Shown in pieces: positions 1,552-31,200 of a DNA stretch of 35,188 nucleotides. Origin of the DNA: Scenedesmus sp. PABB004. Its lineage: Eukaryota. Numbering within the stretch: position 1 is the first letter of the stretch; every line of letters starts with the position of its first letter. Both the position numbers and the translations under genes were made by a program. The notes below the pieces were generated by a model. That model did no database searches, had not been told where the DNA came from, and saw only the letters and a list, made by a program, of their open reading frames with translations. Location: the NCBI GenBank assembly GCA_014905635.1, contig JABVCE010000015.1:868001-903188 (forward strand). Reading direction: 5' to 3'.

Positions 1552-3353
1552 TCACCGAAGCTTGGCCTTGCGCGCGCGCGCGCCGGCCGCGGTGTCGCCC
1601 GCGGCCTCCGCGGCGCGCGCCAAGAAGCGCTCCCACAGCAGGACCTCCGCCCAGTTGGCCAGCAGCCCCCGGTCGTACGGCCGCGGCGGCGGCGCGACGG
1701 CCGGCCGCGCACGCCGCCGCGTGCGCCACCAGCCGCCTCCCGCGCCGCCGCCGCCGCCCGCTGCCTCGGCCGCTGCCTCGGCCGCGGCGTCGGCCTCGGC
1801 GCGCGCGGCGCGGTGCAGTGCGGCGGCGCGGAAGGTCTCGTAGGTGGTGGTCCCCCGGCTGATGAGGGCGGCCTGGTGCGCGAGCAGGCCTGAGAGCAGC
1901 GCCCCCGCGGCGACCATGAACCCCAGCAGGGCCAGGGGGACCGGGTAGAAGGCGAGCAGCCACTCCAGCAGCCTGGCAGGGTTCAGGGCGCGGGGCGGAG
2001 GCGGGGCGGGGCGGACGGCAGCGAGTTGGGTGCCGCTGCGCGCGCGGGCTGCGCCTGGCCTCTCCGAGGCCGGGCTGGCCAGGGGCGCGCGGGGTGGGGG
2101 TGGGTGGGTGGGTGGGTGGGTGGGGGCGGGGCGCACCGCGCTGGCCGGGTGTAGAGGGGGACGCGCGCGCGCAGGGCGGGGTCGTAGACGTAGCTGCGGC
2201 GCGAGTGGGTGCGTGCGTGTGGGTGGGCGGAGGGCGGGGCGGCGACGCGGCGAGAGGCCGCACGCTGGTACGGCAGCGCCCGCGCGCGCGCTCACACGTC
2301 GAGCATGCCGCGGCGCTGCAGCTCGCCCGCGAGCGTCGCGGCGCCGAGCGCGGCGCCGTAGGCGCACAGCGCGGCGTGGGCGGCGAGGAAGGCCAGGAAG
2401 GTCCGGGTGTTGGCGAGGCCGACGCAGTTGTTGATCCAGCCGCAGTGGTGGTCAAACCGCGCGATGCAGCTGCGGGCGCGGCCGCGGGCAGGGGGCGCGG
2501 CATGTGGGTTTGAGCGGGCGCGGCGCGGGAGGTCGAGCGGGCGCGGCGCGATGGGCCGTGTGCGTCGCGCCGCGTCGCACCCGCCGCACGCGCCGCAGTG
2601 CTTTGACCGCCCCGGGCGCGCGCGGGCGCAGGTGGCGCAGGCCTTTGGGGGAAACAGAAGGCCGTCGGGCGGGTGTGCGGCCAGGTGGGCGGCCGCCGTG
2701 TCGGCCGTGATGCGCCCCGGGTCGGAGAGGCTCGCCGCGACAAACAGCGACAGCGCGCCGCACACCGCGGCCGTCCCCGTGAAGCTGTGGCGGCCGCGGG
2801 GCGGCAGGAAGGGGCGGCGGGCGGCGGCGGGGGAGGCGAAACGCTCGGCGGCGGGGCCGCCGCAGCGTCCGCGGCGTCTGCCTGAGCGCCGCGCGCCGCC
2901 GCGCCGCGGCCGCTCACACGTGGGTCTCGCCCACAAACGCGTTGGGCAGCAGGCGCAGCAGGTGGTGCCAGTAGAGGCCATACCCGCCGGTCATGATGCC
3001 CAGGTAGGCCACCTGGCGGCGAGAGCGTTATCTTGTTATTGCGGCGGCGTTCAAACCCGCGCGCCGACAGCCGCCCCCGGGCGCGGCGCCGGGGCGGCGG
3101 CGGCGCGCGCCTGCAGCGTGGGGTTGCGCCGCTCGCAGCAGCACTCGGTCGCGGCGTCGAGCGCGCGCAGGCCGCGCTCGCCGCACACGCGCGACACGGC
3201 GGCCTCCAGGCCGGTCGCCCAGCCCTCGGTGAGCAGCCAGCGCGCCCACGACACGGGCGTGCCCGCAAACAGGGGCGCCTCGCCGCAGAGCAGCACGAAG
3301 ACGAGCGCCGCCGCAAAGCCCGCGTACGCAAAGGCGAGCGTGGCGACGTCCAT
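1552..3353 (-). CDS. DHHC-type zinc-finger protein S-acyltransferase (palmitoyltransferase), SWF1/ZDHHC4-like, multi-exon
   Basis: Exons give MDVATLAFAY...CCERRNPTLQ, SDPGRIT, CATCARARPGRSKHCGACG|CIARFDHHCGWINNCVG (DHHC cysteine-rich domain), transmembrane segments, GTTTYETF (TTxE motif) and PYDRGLLANWAEVL. Stop TGA at 1554-1552. The first intron has a GC donor at 3110. Confidence 0.93.
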
Positions 3354-3403
<50 letters not shown>

Positions 3404-3911
3404 ATGACGATGTTGTGTGGGCTGCTGGGCCGCCCGGCAGCAGCAGCGCCGCTGCTCCGCGCCCCGCGCGCGAAGCAGCGGCGGCGGACGGCGCGGCTGG
3501 CGCTGGGGCCCGGCGCAGCACTGGCCCGCGCGTGGCGGATGCACGGGATCCGGCGGAGTGCTGGGACGCTGTGCGGAGCCGCGCAGCCCGGCGTCGGCGT
3601 CGGCGCGCTTCAAGCGAAAGCGACAGACGCGCTGCGCGGCCGCTCCCTTCGCAGCTGGGCGCCCGTCCTCAGCGCGACCGCACCGTGCCGGAGCTACGCC
3701 GTCGGCCTGCCAGCGCGCGCCTCTACCGGTGCGTGGGGCCGCCCGGTGGTGCCGCCGCTGCTCGAGCGCCAACGCCGCCGCCGCGGCGCAGCAGCCGCCT
3801 GTTCCGCGGCCCTCGCTCCTGCGTGCTCCTGGCCCATCGCACGCCTTGCCTGGGAGCCGAGCGCCCTGCCTCGGCCCCGCGCCAGCCCGGCGCGGCGGCG
3901 GCGCGCTGCCC
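3354..3911. promoter_or_regulatory. Short head-to-head intergenic region, probable bidirectional promoter for DHHC and CEP44
   Basis: Divergent start codons at 3353 (-) and 3912 (+) lie about 560 bp apart. No specific motif was identified. Confidence 0.45.
3355..3407 (+). repeat. Compound (GCT)n(GAT)n microsatellite immediately 5' of the DHHC start codon
   Basis: Directly visible gctgct...gatgat run. Confidence 0.9.
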
Positions 3912-15853: not shown

Positions 15854-15969
15854 ATGCGCGGCCTGATGCGCGGCCAGCGCGGCGCGGGCCTGCTGCTGGC
15901 GCTGGCGCTGGCGCTGGTGCCCTGGCGCGCAGCCTCAGCCGCGCCTGGCCCACTCGCGCGTCCGGGAGA

Positions 15970-16020
<51 letters not shown>

Positions 16021-17244
16021 CCAGCAGCAGCAGCGGCAGCAGCAGCAGCAGCCGGAGAGCTTCAGCCTGCGCCACGCGCCGCCGGGCGCAGCGGCGGCGG
16101 TGCAGGTGCCCTTCCTGGCCTGGCGCGGCGACCCGAAGGCCCCCGGCGCCGCCCGCCTGCCGGTTGTGTTCGTGCTGAACGGGGCCAACGTCGAGGCGAG
16201 GGACTACGGCGCGCTCGCGGCGCGCCTGGCGGCGCGCGGGTACAGCGTGGTCGCGGCCGACCTGTGGCGCCCGCTGCCCGCCGCGCTGCGCGCGTGCGTC
16301 ACCGCGGCGCCGGGGCAGCAGCGCTGGACGCTGCCGCCCGGCTGCCCGCGCGACGCGCTGCTCACGCCGAGCGCGGCGCTGCTGCGCACGTTCCTGGACG
16401 GCGCCGCCGCGGCGCCGCGCGCCGGCCTGACCGCGGCCGACGTGCGCGCGCGCGGCGTGGTGCTGCTGGGGCACAGCATGGGCGGCGCCGTCGCGGCCGA
16501 GGTGCTGGCGGGGCGCTGCGCAGCGCCGCGCGCAACGGCCGCGCGCAACGGCAGCGCGCCCGCCGCGCCGGCGGCGCCGCCGCTCGACTACTGCGAGGGC
16601 GTGCAGCCGACGCTGCGCGCGGCGGCCTGCGGCGAAGCCGGCGGGCAGCCCGCCGGCGCCAGCCCGGGGCTGGTGCTCGGGGCGGTGCTGTTTGAGGGCT
16701 ACGCGAGCTGCCCCGTGCCCGCGGCGGCGCCGCCCGGCGGCGGCGGCGGCGGTGGCGGCGCCAACGCGTGCGGCGGCGGCGGCGGCGGCGGCGGCTGGGC
16801 GCCCGCGGGCGTGGCGCTGCGGCCGGGGGCTTCCTGCTTTACCTTGGCGGCGCCTGGGGGTGGCCCAAGACGCGGGCCGCGTTCGACGCGTCGCCCTCGC
16901 CGCCATGCGGGTGCGTCGGCCACGCCGCGTTTGCGGGGCTGAACCACTTTGGCGTGAACGACTTCCAGCGCGGCAGCCCGCGCCAGCTCACGCGCTGCGG
17001 GCGCGCCGCGGCGAGCGATCCGCTGGGCTACGCCACGACCCCGGCGCGCCACGCCGCGGCGCTGGACGCCATGGCGGCCCTGGTCGACCGCTTCGTGCGC
17101 GCCGCGGCGCTGCGCGACGGCGCCGCGCGCGCCGCGCTGCGCGGCGAGGCGGTCGCCGCGGGCGGCGGCGGCGGCGGGCCGCCGGCGGCGGCAGCGGCGG
17201 CGGGCGGCTACGCGCTGGCGCTCAAGCCGCACTGCTTCGAATGA
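15854..17244 (+). CDS. Alpha/beta hydrolase (chlorophyllase-like) with signal peptide and polyQ; apparent 1-nt frameshift at ~16826-16829
   Basis: Hydrophobic N-terminus (GLLLALALALVPW), PVVFVLNG...YGALAARLAARGYSVVA, and nucleophile elbow GHSMGG. The C-terminal part with LNHFGVND (candidate catalytic His) is in another frame and joins if G5 at 16825-16829 is read as G6. Confidence 0.7.
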
Positions 17245-18060: not shown

Positions 18061-19368
18061 ATGGACTTGCTGGCGCAGGTGGAGGCGGCGGCGAGGGAGG
18101 GCGACGGCGCCGCGCTGAAGGCGCTGCTGGCGGCTGGCGCAGATGTGCACGCAGCCGACACCACCGGCTGCACGGCCCTGCGCAGCGCTGTGCTGGGCGA
18201 CCATGTGGGCGCGCTGCAGGCGCTGCTGGCGGCTGGCGCAGACGTTCACGCAGCCGACACCACCGGCTGGACAGCCCTGCACGCCGCTGCGCGCGCTGGC
18301 CACGTGGGCGCGCTGCAGGCGCTGCTGGCGGCTGGCGCAGACGTCCACGCAGCCAGCACCAACGGCGTGACAGCCCTGCACGCCGCTGCGAGCGCTGGCC
18401 ACGTGGGCGCGCTGCAGGCGCTGCTGGCGGCTGGCGCAGACGTCAACGCAGTTGACACCATCGGCTGGACGGCCCTGCGCAGCGCTGTGCTGGGCGACCA
18501 CGTGGGCGCGCTGCAGGCGCTGCTGGCGGCTGGCGCAGACGTTCACGCAGCCGACACCACCGGCTGGACGGCCCTGCACAGCGCTGTGCTGGGCGACCAC
18601 GTGGGCGCGCTGCAGGCGCTGCTGGCGGCTGGCGCAGACGTGCACGCAGCCGACACCACCGGCTGGACGGCCCTGCACAGCGCTGTGCTGGGCGACCACG
18701 TGGGCGCGCTGCAGGCGCTGCTGGCGGCTGGCGCAGACGTGCACGCAGCCGACACCACCGGCTGGACGGCCCTGCACAGCGCTGTGCTGGGCGACCACGT
18801 GGGCGCGCTGCAGGCGCTGCTGGCGGCTGGCGCAGACGTCAGCGCAGCCGACACCAACGGCGTGACAGCCCTGCACGTCGCAGCGCGCGCTGGCCACGTG
18901 GGCGCGCTGCAGGCGCTGCTGGCGGCTGGCGCAGACGTCAGCGCAGTCGAAACAGAAGGCCACACAACGCTGTCCAACGCTGCGTTTGGCGGCCACGCAG
19001 CGGCCGTGGCCGTGCTGCTGGCGGCCCCGGGCGCGGCGTGGTCCGGCTCACAGCTTGCGGATGCAGCAGACGCCGCCTTGACCGACGGCGGCGCTGCCAA
19101 CGAGGGGTGGCAGCAGGCTGCGGCGCTCGTGGCGCAGCGCCTGGCTGTCGCAGATCCGGCGGAGTTCTGCTCCCTCGTGTCTGGCACGCCCGCGGTGGCG
19201 GGGGCACTGGCGCAGGAGTGCGGCCGCCTCGCCGCCGAGCTGGCAGCGCAGCCCGCGCAGCTGGCGGCGGAGCGGGGCGAGCTGGCGGCGCAGCGCACCG
19301 CGCTGCAGCAGCTGCTCGTCGGCGTCTGCTGCGAGGCCAGGCGGGGGGCGGCCGGCGAGGAGGGCTGA
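18061..19368 (+). CDS. Intronless ankyrin-repeat protein with about 9 tandem 33-aa repeats and a C-terminal helical/coiled-coil segment
   Basis: Repeats of ALQALLAAGADVxAxDxxGxTALHxAxxxxHVG with 99-bp DNA periodicity at ~18112-19002. Stop TGA at 19366-19368. Confidence 0.92.
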   Translation: MDLLAQVEAAAREGDGAALKALLAAGADVHAADTTGCTALRSAVLGDHVGALQALLAAGADVHAADTTGWTALHAAARAGHVGALQALLAAGADVHAASTNGVTALHAAASAGHVGALQALLAAGADVNAVDTIGWTALRSAVLGDHVGALQALLAAGADVHAADTTGWTALHSAVLGDHVGALQALLAAGADVHAADTTGWTALHSAVLGDHVGALQALLAAGADVHAADTTGWTALHSAVLGDHVGALQALLAAGADVSAADTNGVTALHVAARAGHVGALQALLAAGADVSAVETEGHTTLSNAAFGGHAAAVAVLLAAPGAAWSGSQLADAADAALTDGGAANEGWQQAAALVAQRLAVADPAEFCSLVSGTPAVAGALAQECGRLAAELAAQPAQLAAERGELAAQRTALQQLLVGVCCEARRGAAGEEG

Positions 19369-19680: not shown

Positions 19681-22600
19681 ATGCCGGCGCCGCGATCGCA
19701 GCAGCGCCCGAGCGCGGGCTTGGTGCACCGCATCTACCCGCGCCCGCTGGCGCTGCGGGACGCCGTGGCGGAGCTGGTGGGGCGCCAGGAGGCGGGCGAG
19801 GCGCTGCTGGCGGCGCTCGCGCGGCCCGGCGACCCGCGGCGCTACTCCGACGGCTTTCTCTTGCGCACACTGGTCTGCTTCCGCGGCGAGCCGCCCGCGC
19901 TGCAGTCGCCCTGGCGCCTCTCGCAGCGCTGCAGCCAGGAGCAGGTCGGCGCCCCGCGCCGCGCCGCCGCGCCGCCGCGCACGCTAATCTGCGCTGCTGC
20001 CGGCCCGACGCAGCTGCGTGGAGCGCCACCGGCGCCGCCGCCGGCCAACCGCCACCGCGCTGCGCGCGCTGCGCCGCCGCTGCTCGCGGCGCAGATTGTG
20101 CTGCAGGCGATCGACTCCCTCGTGGCCGGAAACGCCGACAACGTGCTGCGCGGCGGCTTCAGGAAGGTGCGCGGCCGTCCCCGGCGCGGCACCGGCGCGC
20201 ACCGGCGGCTCAGCGCGCCGCGCGCCTCCGCCCACGCTGCCGCCGCCCGGGTGGCCTGGCCCGCTCGCCCGCCGACCACCACGCCAGCGCTCGCCCGGCG
20301 CCCGCGGCGGCGGCGGCGGGGGCGGCGGCGGCTGGACGGCGGGCCTGTTCCACGCGCAGCAGGTGCACCCGGGCAGCACGCACGCGGTGCTGCTGGGCCC
20401 CGACTGGTGCCGCCTGCTGGAGCGCGTGGGGGACGAGGTGATGCTCACGCTGCTGCTGCATGGGTCAATCTTCAGCCCCCTACCGGGCAACAACTACCTG
20501 CAGCTCAGCGGCACGCCCGTGCACACGGTGCGCGCGCGCTGTGCGGCGGGCGCGCGTGGGCGCGGCGTCAGCCGCTGGCGCACGCGGGGCCGACGCCATT
20601 CCCGCCGCCGTCGCCACCCACAGGTGCTGCGGGACCGAGCCAGCTTGCCTGCACCCCAGGTGCTGGCCGCCGATTGGCTGGTGGGCCAGCACCTGGCCCA
20701 GGCTGCGGCGGCACAGCAGGCGCAGCAGGCGCAGCAGCAACAGGGCGCTGGCAGCAGCGCAGCACCTGCCGCCACGGGGGAGACCTCCAGGCAGGGCGGC
20801 AGCAGGCCGCCGTCATGGCTGCGGCGCAAGCGAAAGCAGCAGGAGCTGCAGCGCGACGCGGCCGCGGCCGCGGCGCTGCAGCGCCAGCTGCTGCTGGCGG
20901 GCTCGCAGGAGGCGCCGCCGCCAACGGGCACGCAGCAGGGGCTGGTGCAGCTGCATGACGTGGACAGCTGCGACGCGCCCGCCACGCAGGTGAGACGCCG
21001 GCACGGCTGCGCCGCCGCAGCACGCGATGGCGCGCACGCAGCCGCGGCGGCGACGCGCGCACGCGCCGCGCCTGCAGGTGCTGCCTGCCAGCCCCATGGC
21101 GCTGTGGGAGTTTGACTTGGACGAGCTCGGCGACGCGCCGGGGCAGCAGGAGGCGACCAGCCGGGACGCGACGCAGCTGGCCGACGCGATGCAGCTGGAC
21201 GACGCGCCGCAGCTGGACACGGGCCAGCAGCAGCCGTCGCAGCAGCCGTCGCAGCAGCAGGCGCCACCCGCAGTGGCGCGCGCCGGCCGGCCCTCTGCCG
21301 CTGGCGCGGGCGCGGCGCCGGTCAACCCCTCGTCCTGGGTGGTGCCCCGGGCGCTGGTGTTCCACTGCGCCACGTTCAGCCGCAAGCCGGGCCTGCCCGC
21401 ATCGCGTGAGCGGTGCTGGCAGGGCGCTTGGGCCGCGGCAGCCGCGGCAGCAGGCGGCGGCCGGCCTGCGCCGCGCGCCCGCGCCGCTCAGCCAGGCCCG
21501 CCGCCCGCGCCGCCGCCCGCCGCCGCAGACATCCTCCACCAGCTCGCGGGCCGCCCCACCGGGGCGCGGGTGCTGTACGGCGAGATCTTTGCCGCGCCAC
21601 GCCCGCCACCGCTCGGCCGCGGCGGCAGCCGCGCCGCGGCGCCGCGCCCGGCACCGCAGGCGGCCGCCGCAGCGCGGGGTGCCGTGTACCCGCCGCCTGC
21701 GCAGCGCGGAGGCGGAGGCGGCGCCGCGGGCGGGGGCCAGCCCGGCCTTGGCGCGCTGCCGCCGCCGGCGGAGGTGCCGCCGCAGCACCGGCTCCTGCTG
21801 GGCTTGCTGGGGCGCGTGCTGGGTGGGTGCGCGCGTGGGCTGCGCAGGCGCAGCCGGCACGGCTCGCTAGCCGCGCTGCCAGCCGCCTCCCGGCGCTCAC
21901 AAGCCCCCCCCCTCCCACTCTGCCCTGCGCCGCCCCGCCCCACGCCGCCCCGCACCGCGCTGCAGCGCGCGCTGCCCGCTGCCCTTACGCCCTGCTTCTG
22001 AACCACCACTGCCCGCTGCCTGCGGGCATGGGGCCACCGCCGCGGCATCCAGCGAGCGGCGGCGCTGCTGCGGCAGCTGGCGGGGGCGCATGCGCTGCGG
22101 CGGCAGCGTTATCCGCGCGCCGCAAGCGGCGGCGGCGGTCTGGCGTGGCGCCAGCAGCAGCAGCAGCCGCAGCTGCAGGAGCAGCACCAGCAGCAGGTGG
22201 CGCGGCCACACCAGCGCTGCCCGCAGATGCTGGCGGGCCCGGCCGGCCGCCCCGCTGCATGGTGCTGCCGCAGCAGCCGGTGCCTTTGTTCGCGGGGCCG
22301 CCGGTGCCGCCGCCGCAGCTGAGCCTGGTGCTGGCCAGCCCGCCGGTCGGCATGCTGGCGGGCGGCAGCAGCCTGTCGACCAGCCCTCACATCCAGTGCG
22401 GCCAGGGCTCGGCGCCCGCGAGGCCCAGCGAGCAGGGCACGGGGCCCGCCGCCAGCCGGCCCAGCCAGGGCTCAGCGGCCAGCCTGGGCGCGCAGGGCCC
22501 GCTGCTGGAGGCCGGGAGCTCAGAGCAGGCAGGGCCGGCAGCGGGGCTGGGGGGCAGCGGGCCGGCAGCCATGGAGCTCGACCAGCAGCCGCCGGCGGGC

Positions 22601-25243
22601 AGCGCTGAGCAGGCGGCAGCGGGCCTGGCGGCCGCCTCGCAGCAGCAGCCTGCCGCGGCCTCGCCGCCCGCGTCGCCCGACGCCGGCGCCCAGGCGTCGC
22701 AGCTGGGGCTGGCGGCGCAGGTCGTGCCTTGCGGGGCGGTGGAGGCCTACGTGTGGAGCGTGGTGCGGCACGTCGTGCCCGCGGCCCTGCTCGGCAGCCG
22801 GCACAACCGCCAGGCGCGGCGGCGCAGCGCGGCTGGCAAGCGGCAGAGGCGGGGAGCCTGGCCGCGCCCGCCCGCTGCGCGCGGCGCCGGCGCTGACACG
22901 CCGCCGCGCGCCGCGGCGGGCCGGGGTCTGCCCAGGTGCTGCGCCGCGCGCTGGCGGTCGTCATCCGCCTGCGCCGCCACGAGACCGTGCGGCTGCACAG
23001 CCTGCTGGACGGCCTCAAGACCAGCCACATGCCCTGGCTGCAGACCGGTGCCGCCGCCGCGCCGGCGCGCGCGCCGGCGGCGCTGCACGCTGCGCGGGCG
23101 GCGTGGCTCGCGGCCTGGGTGTGGTGGCTGCTGGGCGGCCTGGTGCTGCCGCTGCTGCGCAACAGCTTCTACGTCACAGAGAGTGAGCCGTACCGCCAGG
23201 AGGTGTTTTACTACAGGCACGCACAGCGAGCGCGCGTGGGGAGCCAGGGAGGGCAGGGGGAGCGCCGGGCGGCGGCGGCGGCGGGAGCCCGCCCTGGGCG
23301 GCGGCCGGCCCGCGCGCAGCAGCAGCGCGCCGGCGGCGACTGGCGGCCCGCCCCGCCCTGCGCCGCCGCGGCGGCCGCCGCCGCCGCGCAGGAAGCCGGT
23401 GTGGGCGGCGCTGATGCGGCTGGGCCTGGCGGAGCTCACGAGCAGCTGCTTCACCCCGGTGCCCCGCCAGGCGGCGCTCGCGATGCTGTCCAGCCGCACG
23501 CTGGGCGTGTCGTCGCTGCGGCTGCTGCCCAAGCGGCAGGGCATGCGGCCCATTGCCAGGCTGGGCAGCGCGAGCGTGGTGCGGCTGCGCCGGGGGCGTG
23601 GGGCCGGCGGCGCGCCGGGCGGGCCCGACGCGCAGCCGAGGCACGGCGGCAGGGGCGCCGGCGCCGGCGCGCGCGGCGGCGGCCGGGCAGACGCCCGCGG
23701 CGGGCGCGGGCGCGGCGTGCGGCTGGCCGGGGCCAAGCGCCCGCGCGCCGCCAGCGCCCCGGGCGCGCTGCGGCTGGCCGCCGGCGACGGCCGCGGCGGC
23801 GGCAGGGCCGGCCGCGGCGGGCGCGCACACGCGGTGCTGTCGTTCCGGCCGGTCAACGCAGTGCTGCAGCCGGCCTTCCAGGTGCGCGCGCGGGGGGGGG
23901 GGGGCAGCCGCGACGCGGCGGTGTGGCCGCTGCTGCTCGGTGGGCGCGGGGACGGCCGCCGCGCCAAGGCCCGCCTGTCGTTCCGCTGCCGCGCAGGCGC
24001 TGCGCGCCGAGGTGCTGGCGCGGCCGGGGGTGCTCGGCTGCAGCGTGTTTGGCCTGGACGACATCGCCCGCCGCCTGCACCCCTTCCTGCGGCGCTTCCG
24101 CGCGGCGCAGGACGCCGACCCGGCGCTGCGACCGTGCATCCTCAGCGCCGACGTGCGCCGCGCGTTCGACTCGGGTGCGCCTGGCGCCGCGCTGGCGCCG
24201 CGCCGCCGCGCGCGCGCCGGCGCGCGGCGCCGCGCCAGCGCAGTGCGCGACACCGCCCGCGCGCGCCCGCGCGCAGTGCGCATTCCCAAGCTGCTGTCCC
24301 TCATCGAGCCGCTGCTGGCGAGCCCCTCGTACCGCCTGCTGCGCTTCACCACCGCCAGCCCCATGCTCGGCTCCGTGCGCCTGCGCTACAGCGTCGCCGC
24401 GCTGCGCGACGGCGGCCCCGCCAATGCCAACGGCAACGGCAACGGCCACGGCGACGGTTTCCTCGCGTGGGTCAAGGCGGCGTGCGGGGGCAGCGCCAAC
24501 ACGCTGTACTCAGACCAGGTGGCCAGCAGCGGCGGTCGACGCGCCCGGCACGCCGCCGCGCCGCGCAGCGCCGCACAGCGCAGGAACACCCCTCACCCCC
24601 AACCCGCCGCGCCGGGTCGCATCGCAGGCGCAATCGCGCCGGCTGGAGGGCGCCGAGGTGTGGCGCCTGCTGCGCGAGCACCTCGCGGGCAACCTGCTGC
24701 GCGTCGGCGCAACGCTGCTGCGCCAGACGACCGGCATCGCGCAGGGCAGCGTCGCGAGCACGCTGCTGTGCAGCCTCTACCTGGCAGACCTGGAGGCGGC
24801 GCACCTGCTGCCGCTGCTGCCCAGCCTGGGCGCGCCGCCCGGCGGCGACGGCGCCGCGCAGCCGCGCCAGCGGCCGCCGCCCGCGCTCGCGCTGCCCGCG
24901 GCCGGCCTGGGCAGCATGGCGGGCGCCGCGGCCGCGGCGCCGTCGCGCGCAGGCCCCGGCTCGGCGGCGACCAGCGAGCCCTGCGCGCTGAGCGAGCTCG
25001 CGGCGCTGGCAGCCGCGACGCAGCGCTCGTCGCCGGCGCTGCAGCCGCCGCCCGCGGCGCAGGGCCGTGCCACGCAGACGCCGCCGTCGCAGCCGGCGCC
25101 GGGCGCTGGCGCCGCGCGCTTGCCCGCAGCAGGCGTCGCCCCGCTTGTGGGCGGCACGCCCGTGGGCGTGCAGGTCCCTGCACGCCCGCCGGCGCGGACG
25201 GCCGCCGGGCCGCAGCCGTCGCAGCAGCCGCAGCAGCAGACGT

Positions 25244-25279
<36 letters not shown>

Positions 25280-26061
25280 TGGTCACGCCGCTGCCGCTGC
25301 GCCCGCCGGGCGGCGAGCGCGGCTCTGCGCAGGCCTCCAAGTCGGGGTCTGGCGGCTCCGGCGTCAAGCACACAAGCAGCCAGTCCGGCGGCAAGCTCAG
25401 CGTGACGTCCAACGCGTCCACCGACGACCCCGAGCGCCTGCCACGCTGCGGCGCGGGCGCGGGGCGACGCGCCCACGCGCCTGGCGCGCCGGGCGAGGCC
25501 GACGCGGGCGTGCCGCCGCTGCGGCTGTCGCAGGGCGCGGACGGCGGCGCTGGCGACGCTGCGGGCGGCGCGGGGGAGCAGGCGCTGGACATGGAGTCGC
25601 AGCACGAGCAGCAGTGGCCGGCAGAGCCAGGCGGCGAGCAGGGCGCGCCGCACAGCCAGGAGCAGCGCCAGGCGGCGATGCTGCCGCCCGTGGCGCCGGG
25701 GCGCGTGGGGCTTGCGCAGCGTCTGCCGCAGCAGGGGCCGGCGGCAGCGCTCGGCGCGTCGCAAGGCAGCGGCACCCCGCCTGCCGGCTCGCCCCACCTG
25801 CTGCTCACGCTGTGCAGCGGGCAGAGCGCAGGGGCGGCGGCGGCCATCGGCGGCAGCCAGCCGCAGCAGGCCGGCCCGGCGCAGGTTGGCAGCGGCGTCG
25901 CGCTCGCGGCTGCAGCCGATGCCGCCGCGGGGAGCCCTGCGGGGTCGGAGCCGCTGCTGGCGACGCAGCCGGTGGCGGAGGCCGCCTGCGCAGATGCCTG
26001 CCCTGGCTGCGGCGGGCACGGCGGCAGCGGGCAGAACGTCAGCCCTATGGACGTCGACGGC

Positions 26062-26105
<44 letters not shown>

Positions 26106-28061
26106 GCAGCGGCAGCAGCAGCAGGGGCCGCCCAGAGGTGGCGGCGGCGGCGCCAGCGACAGCGACTGCCTGCCAGCCACCCAGCCGGTGCCGGCGAGCC
26201 CGAGCGCGGCCCCCGGCGGCGACGCCGCGCCGGGCGCTGGCAGCAGTGAGAGCCCGATGAGCACCGAAGACCTCGCGGAGCAGCGAGGGCAGCCCGACCA
26301 GCAGCCCCTGGCGCAGCCGCCGGCGCTGCAGCCGGAGGGGCAGCGCGAGCGGGCGTCGCAGGAGCTGGCGCAGGCGACGCCGCCGTCACAGGCGACGCCG
26401 CCGTCGCAGGCGCAGCTGGACGGCCAGCTGGTGTGGCCCTCGCAGCTCACGCAGCGCCAGCGCCGCGAGCAGCAGCGCGCCGGGCCGGCGGCGCTGCGTC
26501 CCGCGGTGCCCGGCGCCGAGGCCGCCCGCCCCAGCGCGGCCGCGCCCAGCGCCGCCGGCGCGGCCGCGCCCAGTGCCGCCGGCGCGGCCGCTCCCGCCGC
26601 GCCCCCTGCGCCGCGCGCGCCGCGGCGGCGCCCCGACTCTGTGCTGCTGCGCCTGGTGGATGACTTCCTGTGCATCACCACCAGCACCGCCGCGGCGGCG
26701 GCGCTGCTGGCGCGCCTGGCCGAGGGTGAGCCGCGCCCCCGCCGCGCGCGCGCCGCGCCCGCGCCGCGTGGCTTACCCTCCGCGCCGCCCCCTGTTCCTC
26801 CCATCTTCCCCCCGCGCCAGGCTTCCCCGGTCACGGCATGAGCATCAACCCCGCCAAGACGCAGCTCAACTTTGACGCGGCGCTGCCGGACGGCACGGCG
26901 CTGCCGCCGAGCGTGTGGCGCAGCCGCGACGGGTGCGCGCCGCGCAGCCGCGCACGGGGCTCCGCGCCCGCCCACGCCCACGCGGCCGCGCCTGCCGCGC
27001 CCTGGCGCGCCCGCCTCGCCCACGCGCCCGTGTGCGGCGCAGGTCGTGCTGGGTGCGGTGGTGCGGGCTGCTGGTCAACGCGGTCAACTGTGAGCTCATG
27101 GCCGACTACAGCCGCTACAGCGGGCAGCACATCAGCACCGCGCTCACGGTCAACCGCGGGCCCCGCCCCGGCGCGCACCTGCTCAGCAAGGTGCGGCCGG
27201 CGCGTGGCGCCGCGCGCCGCGCGGGAGGCGAGGCGAGGCGATTTGCCGCCGCGTGGCCCCGCGCACCGCCGCCGCGTGGCCCCGCTGACGCCGGCCGCGT
27301 GACACAGGTGCTGAGCTACATGCGCCCCAAGATGCACGCGCTGCTGCTGGACGGCGGCCTCAACAGCCCCCTCACCGTGCGGCTCAACATCTACCAGGCG
27401 CGCCGCCGCGCGTGCCTGGAGGGCGGTGCCACACGCCGCGCGCTCACTCCGCTCCCCCACACACACACACCGCACACCACCGCTACACGCACACGCCTCT
27501 CACACCTCTCACCTCACGCCCCCACGCCCCCCCCCCCCGCCGCCACGCCCCCAGGCCTTCCTGCTGGCGTTTATGAAAATGCACTGGGCCGTGCGCTGCC
27601 TTCTCACACGCCGCGGCCCCGCGGCCGACCCGCGGCTCGCGCTGCGCGCGGTGCAGGGCTGCATCAACTACGCCGTCGGCCTCGTGCGGGGGCGCGTGGC
27701 GCTCGCGCGGCAGCGCCTGCGCCTCGACGTGCGCTGCACCGTCAGCCGCTGCCACATCCGCTGGCTCGGCCTCAGCGCCGCGCGCGCCGTCATGGCCAGG
27801 CGCGGCGCGGCGCGCGCGCCGCGCACGGCGCCGGCCGCGCACGACGGCGATTGGGCCGGGGCGGGCGACGGCACCGCACGTGGCCGACACCGCCGCCGAC
27901 GCTGCCGCCGCCGCCCTTGCAGGAAGCAGTCGTGCTACGCCGCGGCGCTCGCGGTGCTCGACCGGCAGCTCGCCGCGCCGGCGTTCCGCCACGTGCGCGC
28001 GCAGCTGGCGCCCGTGGTGGAGCCGGCGCGGTCGTCGGTGTTCGACGACGTCCGCTTCTGA
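19681..28061 (+). CDS. TERT: Telomerase reverse transcriptase, multi-exon
   Basis: TEN domain (NVLRGGF; WCRLLERVGDEVMLTLLLHGSIF...NNYLQLSG), CP motif (CPYALLLNHHCP), QFP motif (VEAYVWSVVRHVVP..LLGS..N) and T motif (LLRNSFYVTESEPYRQEVFYYR|KPVW). RT motifs 1/2 (LRLLPK..GMRPI), A (SADVRRAFDS), B' (QTTGIAQGSVASTLLCSLY), C (LLRLVDDFL), D (GMSINPAKT) and E (WCGLL), followed by the CTE (LLLDGGLNS...LNIYQ). Stop TGA at 28059-28061. Confidence 0.96.
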
Positions 28062-28265
28062 GCGGGTCGCGCTTCTCCCGGGTCGCGCGCGCGTGCCGCG
28101 GCGCAGCGGCGGCGGTTTGGCGTGCGCGGGCCAGGCGGCGGCGCGCCGCGCTCGCGAACAACTCGGCGCACGCAGTCCCGCTCCGCCCGAGCAGCCGCGC
28201 CGGCCACGGAGCGCCTGCCAATCCCGTTCGTCCGCGCAGCAGCAGCCCGCGCGGCGTGAGCAGCC

Positions 28266-31200
28266 ATGGGGAACGTCCTGGGCTGCCGGCCTAGCCCGGT
28301 GAGCTCCCGGCGGGGCGCGGGGGCCGCGCGAGCGCGCGCTGGGGCCGTAGACTTGCGCTCTCGCTCCCGCCTCCTCCTGAATTGCCGCTCCCGCTCGCCA
28401 GGCACCGGGCGAGGCCCGCGAGCGCCAGGCCGGTCGCAAGGAGGCGGCCGGCGCCGGCGCCGCGCCGGCGGCCGCCGAGGTGCGCGGCGGCGCTGCTGCT
28501 CCCGCGGCGGCCGCGCAGCGCGGCGCGCGGCTGGCGGCGGCGCCCGGCGCTCCCTGCCGGCCGGCCGCATCCCAGGCGGCGTCTGGCGCCGCCGCGCCGC
28601 ACGACGCCGCCGCCCGCCCGCCGTGCGTGCGCGCGGGGCCCGGCCCGCGCCGCGCAGGCCGACGACGCGCTGCCGGCGGACGTGCGCATCACGTTTGTGC
28701 TGGGCGGCCCCGGCAGCGGCAAGGGCACGCAGTGCGAGCGCATCGTGGCGCGCTACGGCCACACGCACCTGTCGGCGGGCGACCTGCTGCGCGAGGAGGT
28801 GGCGAGCGGCAGCGAGCTGGGGCGGCAGTGCGAGGAGATCATGCGGGAGGGCAAGCTGGTCCCCATGGAGGTGAGCGACCGACTGACCGACCGCCCGGGC
28901 GGGTGCAGCCGGGAGGCGCGGCGGGCGGCGGCAGGGCTGGCGGCGGCGGCAGCGGCGCGGGCTGCCGCTGCCGGGGCGCGCGCCGCTGACCGGACGCACC
29001 CGCGCGCGCGCCCGCGCCCGCGCTGGCGCAGGTCATCATCCGGCTGCTGCGCAGCGCCATGGTCAAGAGCGGCGGGCGCCAGTTCCTGATTGACGGCTTC
29101 CCGCGCGCGCTGGACCAGGCAGAGATGTTTGAGCGCATGGTCAAGCCGGCGGAGCTGGTGCTCGCGTTTGACTGCTCGCAGGAGGTCATGGAGGCGCGCC
29201 TGCTGAAGCGCGGCGAGACGTCGGGCCGCAGCGACGACAACGCGGCCACCATCCGCAAGCGCTTTGACACGTTTGTCGCGCAGAGCCTGCCCGTCATCGA
29301 GCACTACGAGGCCCTCGGCAAGGCGGCACGAGTCAGCGCCGAGGCACACCCGGACGACGTCTTCGCCGCCGTCGTCGCCGCGCTGGAGGCCGCGCAGGCC
29401 GAGGTGGGCAGCCGACAAGGGCCCCGGGCTCCGCGCGGCTTGCAAGGCGGGCGCTGGGCTTGCAGGACGCGCAGCGCAGCTCGCTCGGCGGCCTGCGCCA
29501 GGCGCCGACCCGCCACCGCGCAGCTGCCGCCGCGCAGCTGCGCGCGCTCGCGTGCGCTCACACAACCCGCCGCCGCCGCCCGCCGCGCGCAGGCGCAGGT
29601 GCTGGAGGAGGCCAGCATCGTGTTTGTGCTGGGCGGCCCCGGCAGCGGCAAGGGCACGCAGTGCGAGCGCATCGTGGCGCGCTACGGCCACACGCACCTG
29701 TCGGCGGGCGACCTGCTGCGCGAGGAGGTGGCGAGCGGCAGCGAGCTGGGGCGGCAGTGCGAGGAGATCATGCGGGAGGGCAAGCTGGTCCCCATGGAGG
29801 TGAGCGACCGACTGACCGACCGCCCGGGCGGGTGCAGCCGGGAGGCGCGGCGGGCGGCGGCAGGGCTGGCGGCGGCGGCAGCGGCGCGGGCTGCCGCTGC
29901 CGGGGCGCGCGCCGCTGACCGGACGCACCCGCGCGCGCGCCCGCGCCCGCGCCGGCGCAGGTCATCATCCGGCTGCTGCGCAGCGCCATGGTCAAGAGCG
30001 GCGGGCGCCAGTTCCTGATTGACGGCTTCCCGCGCGCGCTGGACCAGGCAGAGATGTTTGAGCGCATGGTCAAGCCGGCGGAGCTGGTGCTCGCGTTTGA
30101 CTGCTCGCAGGAGGTCATGGAGGCGCGCCTGCTGAAGCGCGGCGAGACGTCGGGCCGCAGCGACGACAACGCGGCCACCATCCGCAAGCGCTTTGACACG
30201 TTTGTCGCGCAGAGCCTGCCCGTCATCGAGCACTACGAGGCCCTCGGCAAGGCGGCGCGAGTCAGCGCCGAGGCACACCCGGACGACGTCTTCGCCGCCG
30301 TCGTCGCCGCGCTCGAGCGCATGGTGTGTGCACGCGTGCGCCCGGCAGCGCGGGCGCGCCGCATCCCTCCGCTGGCGCCGCCGCGCGCTGCGATGCTCGG
30401 GGTGGGGCAGCTGGCGCAATCGCTGACTGGGCTCGCCGCCGTCGCCGCGCCCGTGCCGCCGTGCAGGCCGTGCAGGCCACGCCGGCGCCGCTAGTCGTCC
30501 CGCTGGTCCCCGGCGAGCTGCACCCCGACGCCAGCATTGTGTTTGTGCTGGGCGGCCCCGGCAGCGGCAAGGGCACGCAGTGCGAGCGCATCGTGGCGCG
30601 CTACGGCCACACGCACCTGTCGGCGGGCGACCTGCTGCGCGAGGAGGTGGCCAGCGGCTCCAGCGTCGGGCAGGCGTGCGAGCGCATCATGCGGGAGGGC
30701 CAGCTCGTGCCAATGGAGGTGAGCGAGCCCCGAGGCGGGGGAGGGAAAGGGGGAGGGGGGCGGCGAGCGCGGCCGACCGCCATCGCCGACCGCCGCCGCC
30801 CGCCCGCCTGCCGCTGCCGCGGCGCCGCGCCGCGCGCAGGTGACGATCGCCCTGCTGCGCAACGCCATGGTCGCCAGCGGCGCGTCGCGCTTCCTGATTG
30901 ACGGCTTCCCGCGCGCCATGGACCAGGCGGCCGCGTTTGAGGCAATGATCAAGCCCTGCCAGTGAGGCCCGCGGCGCGGCGGGCGCGGCGCGGCGCGTCG
31001 CGGCGCCGGGCCGGCAGCCGTGCCGCTGCGCGCGCAGCGGCAGCCCGCGCGCGGCGCGGCGCGGCCGCGTGCTCGCAGCAGGGCCGCCGTGCGCCCGCGC
31101 CCGCGCGCGGCGGCGGCTGACCGAGGCCGGCCGCGCCGCCCGCCCCCGTGCAGGATGGTGCTCGCGTTTGACTGCTCGCAGGAGGTCATGGAGGCGCGCC

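Follow-up and report, generated by a model that had tools for sequence, protein, structure and literature searches.

The TERT gene and the insert in its catalytic domain

The window analyzed here is a stretch of 35,188 nucleotides from Scenedesmus sp. PABB004 (contig JABVCE010000015.1, positions 868,001 to 903,188), which belongs to a genome (G000) of 40 Mb and 79% GC. On its forward strand lies a gene for the telomerase catalytic subunit TERT (19681..28061), for which we built by hand a model of 17 exons, encoding 2,144 amino acids with one terminal stop and supported by Pfam matches and homologues. All 16 introns measure 88 to 175 nt, and four of them use GC donors (22814, 23217, 27398, and 27800), a share high enough that gene predictors will be misled in this genome. 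The exon at 22936..23216 carries the telomerase RNA-binding domain with the T motif (PF12009, Telomerase_RBD, E value 5.8e-20), and the TEN domain profile (PF11474, TEN_TERT) matches one exon with 24.2 bits, just below the cut-off of 25. Reverse transcriptase (RT) motifs 1/2, A, B', C, and E follow in order, with the catalytic aspartates, at positions 940, 1111, 1238, 1877, and 1944 of the model. A quick tree of RT cores (36 rows, all of TERT type; one of 37 was dropped because it had no B' match, and the locus L091 was left out) places the gene as sister to the TERT model of Tetradesmus obliquus, with a Shimodaira-Hasegawa-like approximate likelihood ratio test (SH-aLRT) value of 98. Judged by the features tested, namely RNA-binding domain, RT motifs, and tree, the gene is TERT, and its telomerase activity is predicted.

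Exon 12 (24628..26725; 2,098 nt between an AG acceptor and a GT donor) contains both motif B' (24742..24780) and motif C with its two catalytic aspartates (26644..26670), and the two motifs agree with those of TERT relatives. The initial annotation had read one open frame running from B' to C through low-complexity sequence, with about 17 SQ/TQ dipeptides and two polyglutamine tracts. All of this was borne out: positions 24628-26727 translate into 700 residues with no stop, 12 SQ and 5 TQ add up to exactly 17, and the tracts lie at 25246-25278 and 26065-26103. As a result, 621 residues stand between the motifs, where the usual spacing is about 36. Immediately after B' comes a conserved helix (24781..24822), found in our alignment A3 and helical in both structure models, which is by these predictions part of the normal TERT fold and lies outside the variable loop. 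The insert proper (24823..26634) comprises about 600 residues rich in A, P, Q, G, and S. AlphaFold gave it a predicted local distance difference test score (pLDDT) below 50 except for the polyglutamine helices; the run used the isolated exon product and a shallow alignment, so the flanks of the insert were modeled poorly too. Pfam and PDB sequence searches with the 700-residue exon product returned no match. Searching G000 with the TERT DNA returned one full match and elsewhere only short GC-rich matches; this single full match gives no support for a mobile-element origin of the insert, in a search that skips simple repeats.

A short-loop green-algal TERT, P0020, allowed us to explore how such a loop could be accommodated. 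Its model is a confident fold (predicted template modeling score 0.78) that matches human TERT in Foldseek (E value 3.6e-46 to 9shz), and its low-confidence loop (residues 768-811) links the B' helix to the strand of motif C, with a small helix at residues 782-788 where a conserved island lies. Based on this model, the catalytic fold would close unchanged around the long loop of the window TERT.

The coding character of the insert was then judged by its codon statistics. GC content at the three codon positions is 0.85/0.66/0.92 in the insert and 0.78/0.60/0.93 elsewhere in the coding model, while it is flat in the introns (0.85/0.84/0.86). Under a codon model that trained itself on 800 kb of G000, the insert frame scores +0.31 bits per codon, and none of the remaining five frames exceeds -0.03. 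A synonymous-codon test trained on the TERT gene alone was uninformative, giving 0.095 for the insert frame, 0.090 for one reverse frame, and up to 0.103 for introns. It seems that the insert is very probably translated, and we predict with considerable confidence that it is retained in the mRNA. We may conclude that the window encodes, very probably, a normal and single TERT with a long translated disordered loop between the post-B' helix and the motif C strand.

Long predicted B'-C loops in chlorophycean TERTs

Spacing, counted from the glutamine of B' up to the first catalytic aspartate in motif C, was measured in 164 proteins; 138 show both motifs, and 26 lack one by pattern. In 89 of the 138 the spacing is 34 to 38, and another 16 have 40 to 58. 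Spacings of 63 to 140 occur in 27 proteins, which by sequence likeness come mainly from land plants and non-chlorophycean green algae, one of them (P0089) being misassigned. Beyond these are P0084, P0029, and P0095 (234, 270, and 360), the window TERT (639), and P0016 (1,106), which groups with a 2,921-residue Chromochloris gene model, its species taken from the label Chrzof1. In the quick tree, P0095 and P0029 are placed outside the chlorophycean clade, which means that the loop has expanded more than once.

Further relatives came from a search for long TERTs, in which 4 of 21 lacked a pattern match, and from a metagenome scan. A long insert is present in eight of nine chlorophycean-type TERTs with both motifs, the window included, and the seven others span 512 to 2,252 residues: P0177 (512), L089 (624), Chlamydomonas eustigma (847), Chromochloris (1,088), Volvox africanus (2,106), Volvox reticuliferus (2,158), and L091 (2,252). 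The ninth TERT, without a long insert, is the Tetradesmus model. The four named proteins are gene predictions, insert included. In L091, a 2,372-codon open frame passes through the insert, whereas the other forward frames hold 28 and 52 stops, and the L089 insert lies within one open reading frame (ORF) of 2,449 codons that reaches from the TEN region to the C terminus. This TERT is apparently intronless (L089:6383-13729) and sits on a chlorophyte-type contig of 76% GC. Closer relatives were sought with the opening 280 residues of the exon product, and none turned up among 8,000 candidates of 385 to 1,225 residues.

Apart from a few islands, the inserts of distant lineages do not align. Near the start of each long insert is a helix-like island, L-[TS]-[AE]-[LM]-A (24988..25017 in the window), found in 8/8 long inserts and in a looser form in four of the nine shorter inserts checked. 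A second island of 10 residues (25414..25443) is identical in the Chromochloris TERT, where 300 shuffles give at most 7. The Chlamydomonadales-type inserts have other six-residue words in common; a VIDL-plus-acidic word and an SDEDVW word are conserved among them (L091 ORF 2693-9808; P0173 and P0174), the former resembling a SUMO-interacting motif.

According to these comparisons, the loop site appears expandable across green plants and very long in Chlorophyceae, and the B'-C loop is probably a real, translated feature of the whole class and not a graft peculiar to this genome. Because B' and C form the polymerase palm, a loop of 500 to 2,250 residues there shows that the site is freely expandable. 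The loop also accounts for chlorophycean TERTs being misannotated or missed by domain searches.

TQ motifs of the insert and their possible role

In the window insert, the 17 S/T-Q dipeptides (serine or threonine before glutamine) compare with 9.5 expected in plain shuffles (P = 0.007). When glutamine runs are collapsed, 6.1 are expected and none of 20,000 shuffles reaches the count, while the reversed dipeptides QS and QT together number only 4. In the 800-kb control from G000, 60 low-complexity coding-like segments (of 259 called) hold 38 S/T-Q against 57 expected, and the densest of the control segments reaches 1.81 per 100 residues versus 2.74 in the insert. The richest cluster, at 26356..26454 on the forward strand, has five sites in 50 residues (four SQ and one TQ); the rule for an S/T-Q cluster domain is at least three in 50 (PMC3564818). 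All eight long inserts reach that density, as do 4 of the 259 G000 segments, which are shorter.

The signal shared across the inserts is carried by TQ and the residue at +3. Total S/T-Q is enriched in three of the eight inserts and TQ alone in five (P < 0.05), whereas T-Q-x-[VILMF] occurs 39 times over the eight inserts with 9.6 expected, and is enriched in seven of them (P < 0.05). A hydrophobic residue (V, I, L, M, or F) stands at +3 of 39/70 TQ in the inserts but of only 67/547 other glutamines; in a G000 sample the figure is 10/57. In six of the same proteins, the motif accounts for 22/40 TQ inside the insert versus 6/29 outside (P = 0.006). The motif was picked by eye in L091 and is post hoc there, but it was recorded before P0173, P0174, P0175, and P0177 were viewed, and the preference held in these four (25/43 TQ versus 36/283 other glutamines; 17/29 versus 22/177 with only one Volvox counted). 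The motifs also cluster, lying mostly at 50 to 78% of insert length in seven of the eight inserts. Between the two Volvox species, 26/29 TQ and 10/19 SQ are kept, compared with 41% of all dipeptides; between L091 and Volvox, 8/30 TQ and 0/15 SQ are kept; and between L089 and P0177, 2/8 TQ are kept by alignment, no better than background. TQ is retained above background between relatives in a way that SQ, QT, and QS are not. The window insert has two such motifs, both TQPV, at 25957..25974 and 26173..26190 on the forward strand, and the first is a candidate phosphothreonine site for an FHA domain.

These data bear on the proposal in the initial annotation that a module responsive to DNA-damage kinases was grafted into the palm. 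The predicted disorder stands, and so does the S/T-Q excess over composition and over the G000 background. A graft peculiar to this TERT does not, since seven other chlorophycean-type TERTs carry 512 to 2,252 residues at this site, where shorter loops occur in land plants and in other green algae. The signature itself had to be redrawn: 12 of the 17 sites are SQ, which are unconserved between relatives, total S/T-Q is unenriched in five of the eight inserts, and the conserved element is TQ-x-hydrophobic.

We propose that the loop would act as a regulatory scaffold in the TERT palm, in which a phosphatidylinositol 3-kinase-related kinase (PIKK) of the ATM/ATR type would phosphorylate the cluster of T-Q-x-hydrophobic motifs, and the phosphorylated motifs would bind an FHA-domain protein, for instance an FHA-RING ligase. 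Such docking may tune telomerase recruitment, turnover, or exclusion from DNA breaks. Two precedents favor this proposal: ATM phosphorylates the clustered TQXF motifs of MDC1, which are then bound by the FHA domain of RNF8 (PMC11884936), and the residue at +3 of the phosphothreonine is a main FHA determinant (PMC3351161). In G000, one of 6 FATC matches is an ATM-like end, and there are 11 FHA matches, near which 161 of 210 frames were scanned. At about 3040-3740 of one locus (L100, G000:C1:2870500-2878500), an FHA match is directly followed by a RING match in an RNF8/CHFR-like layout, and this FHA stretch found no match among solved structures. On balance, we lean slightly toward the TQ sites being phosphorylated; docking of an FHA protein, with the effect it would have, is possible but more doubtful. 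As a whole, a translated, disordered scaffold whose TQ cluster turns into an FHA docking site once a PIKK has phosphorylated it is put forward tentatively.

Nearly as likely is that the insert is translated but is mostly a tolerated low-complexity expansion at a permissive surface loop, in which a few islands interact with partners or with the enzyme itself and need no DNA-damage phosphorylation to do so. The size range of the inserts with almost no alignable sequence between distant lineages, the loop of 63 to 140 residues at the same place in many land plants and other algae, the unenriched total S/T-Q in five inserts, and the hypervariable insertions between domains of Plasmodium TERT (PMC2943602) all fit this explanation. 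Several further observations also weigh against the scaffold. Low-complexity expansion affects the N-terminal linker of chlorophycean TERTs as well, so the insert length alone needs no special function. The window insert holds only two TQ-x-hydrophobic motifs (P = 0.04). Chromochloris has no TQ cluster, with one such motif versus 1.9 expected, TQ below chance (3 versus 8.4), and total S/T-Q at 19 versus 21. Over the 70 TQ, the +3 residue is V in 14, L in 14, and I in 6, with F not among the six commonest. Furthermore, the eight inserts include two close pairs and are not independent, and an ATR-type kinase is unconfirmed in G000, where the putative ATR end (L095) had no solved-structure match. 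What tolerated expansion does not readily explain is the retention of TQ above background, the +3 preference in the sequences viewed after the motif was recorded, and the clustering of the motifs in one part of the insert.

It is improbable, in our judgment, that 24800-26630 consists mostly of a long intron, or that the main splice form loses most of it and so gives an active enzyme with ordinary B'-C spacing. The open frame alone is weak evidence of coding at 79% GC, where open frames come cheaply: the other two forward frames hold only 3 and 1 stops, from which the chance of a stop-free frame is about 0.14, and the window has 212 ORFs of at least 100 residues. Since GC donors are used in the gene, cryptic sites are many, and splice-like donors within the insert score up to 6.5, within the range of the real donors (-2.4 to 12.0), so partial alternative splicing may occur. 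The center of the Chlamydomonas TERT model lacks expressed sequence tag (EST) coverage (PMC6549138), and the Tetradesmus model joins B' straight to C with a spacing of 21. However, this spacing is below the usual 36, and the model is also without the conserved post-B' helix and motifs 1-2, which suggests a misprediction. The short range of the modeled introns also argues against removal, and the only positively scoring donor just past B' (24829) would not, with frames worked out by hand, preserve the reading frame with any of the four acceptors listed near C. In addition, the codon statistics of the insert are exon-like, long open frames are kept in seven relatives, and peptide islands are conserved inside the insert. 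It is very unlikely that the TQ motifs form a multivalent array for the dynein light chain hub protein LC8, dimerizing TERT. Clients of LC8 typically carry repeated TQ-centered motifs in disordered regions, but LC8 favors TQT as an anchor and disfavors prolines next to it, while only 5/70 TQ are TQT and the residue seen most often on either side is proline (18/70 and 19/70).

A second candidate regulatory site lies in the N-terminal linker. A TQ (PATQ, 20978..20989, forward strand), followed past an intron by a PMALW motif, is also present in Tetradesmus, Chromochloris, and L089; across the exon 4/5 junction (20978-21113), the TQ and a PMALW[DE]F-type motif are kept in the window TERT, Chromochloris, and L089 and partly in Tetradesmus.

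The rest of the window contains other genes. Upstream of TERT are an alpha/beta-hydrolase-like ORF with a polyglutamine tract (15862-17244) and an ankyrin-repeat ORF with near-identical repeats (18061-19365). The downstream gene (28260-31000) encodes at least three tandem adenylate-kinase domains, two of the repeats being near-identical in DNA, introns included. The plant telomere-type repeat occurs five times, always on the forward strand (9995, 11702, 13553, 14211, and 14234), and never in 100 shuffles. All five copies are in or near a starch-branching-enzyme-like gene, and the two that were read in sequence sit just before a splice acceptor, possibly serving as branch sites.

Comparison with known systems

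In the literature searched, we found no description of a B'-C insert in an algal TERT, although subscription papers may hold one, and the available parts of PMC3622300, PMC9498494, and PMC10620057 contain nothing on TERT structure. The canonical TERTs of human, Tetrahymena, yeast, and Tribolium have the same order of regions as the window TERT (TEN, which is putative in the window, then RNA-binding, RT, and C-terminal), but differ from its spacing of 639, as the 34 to 38 residues in 89/138 proteins show. A large RT insertion is already known, the IFD (PMC2943602); it lies between A and B', whereas the insert described here lies between B' and C. The TERT of Plasmodium falciparum is also greatly enlarged by hypervariable insertions, but these are placed between conserved domains, and the part of the paper available mentions no motif cluster (PMC2943602).

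The closest parallel in size is CrTERT of Chlamydomonas reinhardtii (Cre04.g213652), likewise a very large chlorophycean TERT of 5,019 residues and needed for telomere maintenance (PMC6549138). Eberhard et al. called this model probably incorrect, as it showed no clear motifs 1, 2, and A and no EST in its center (PMC6549138). In the available text, by which alone the two were compared, no B'-C insert is described, and B', C, and E are among the motifs given as conserved in a figure legend (PMC6549138). A multi-kilobase B'-C insert may account for part of the model being judged incorrect, and the present insert gives this disputed model a concrete reading. It also narrows the threonines worth mutating to a short list, and telomerase mutants and telomere assays already exist in this alga.

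In its most far-reaching form, our proposal would be that Chlorophyceae carry in the palm an MDC1-like, ATM/ATR-phosphorylated FHA scaffold of up to 2,250 residues, through which checkpoint signals act on the catalytic subunit itself. We regard this as speculative and somewhat less probable than the individual steps; if it is true, the giant Chlamydomonas model is essentially correct and that alga is a place to dissect the mechanism. Telomerase recruitment is known to be regulated at S/T-Q through ATM/ATR-type sites of Cdc13 and Ccq1 (PMC1669766, PMC3820796). Those sites are on telomere-binding proteins, while the algal TQ sites are inside TERT. If the motifs are FHA sites made by a kinase, checkpoint control would be wired into TERT itself. 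The TQXF cluster of MDC1, read by the FHA domains of RNF8 and Pellino, likewise presents several T-Q-x-hydrophobic motifs in a disordered region; there, however, the +3 residue is F and the carrier is an adaptor, whereas in the algal TERTs the candidate sites mostly have V, L, or I at +3 and sit in the catalytic domain of an enzyme. With +3 not F, the algal array is no member of the MDC1-type TQXF class, but it may work like it.

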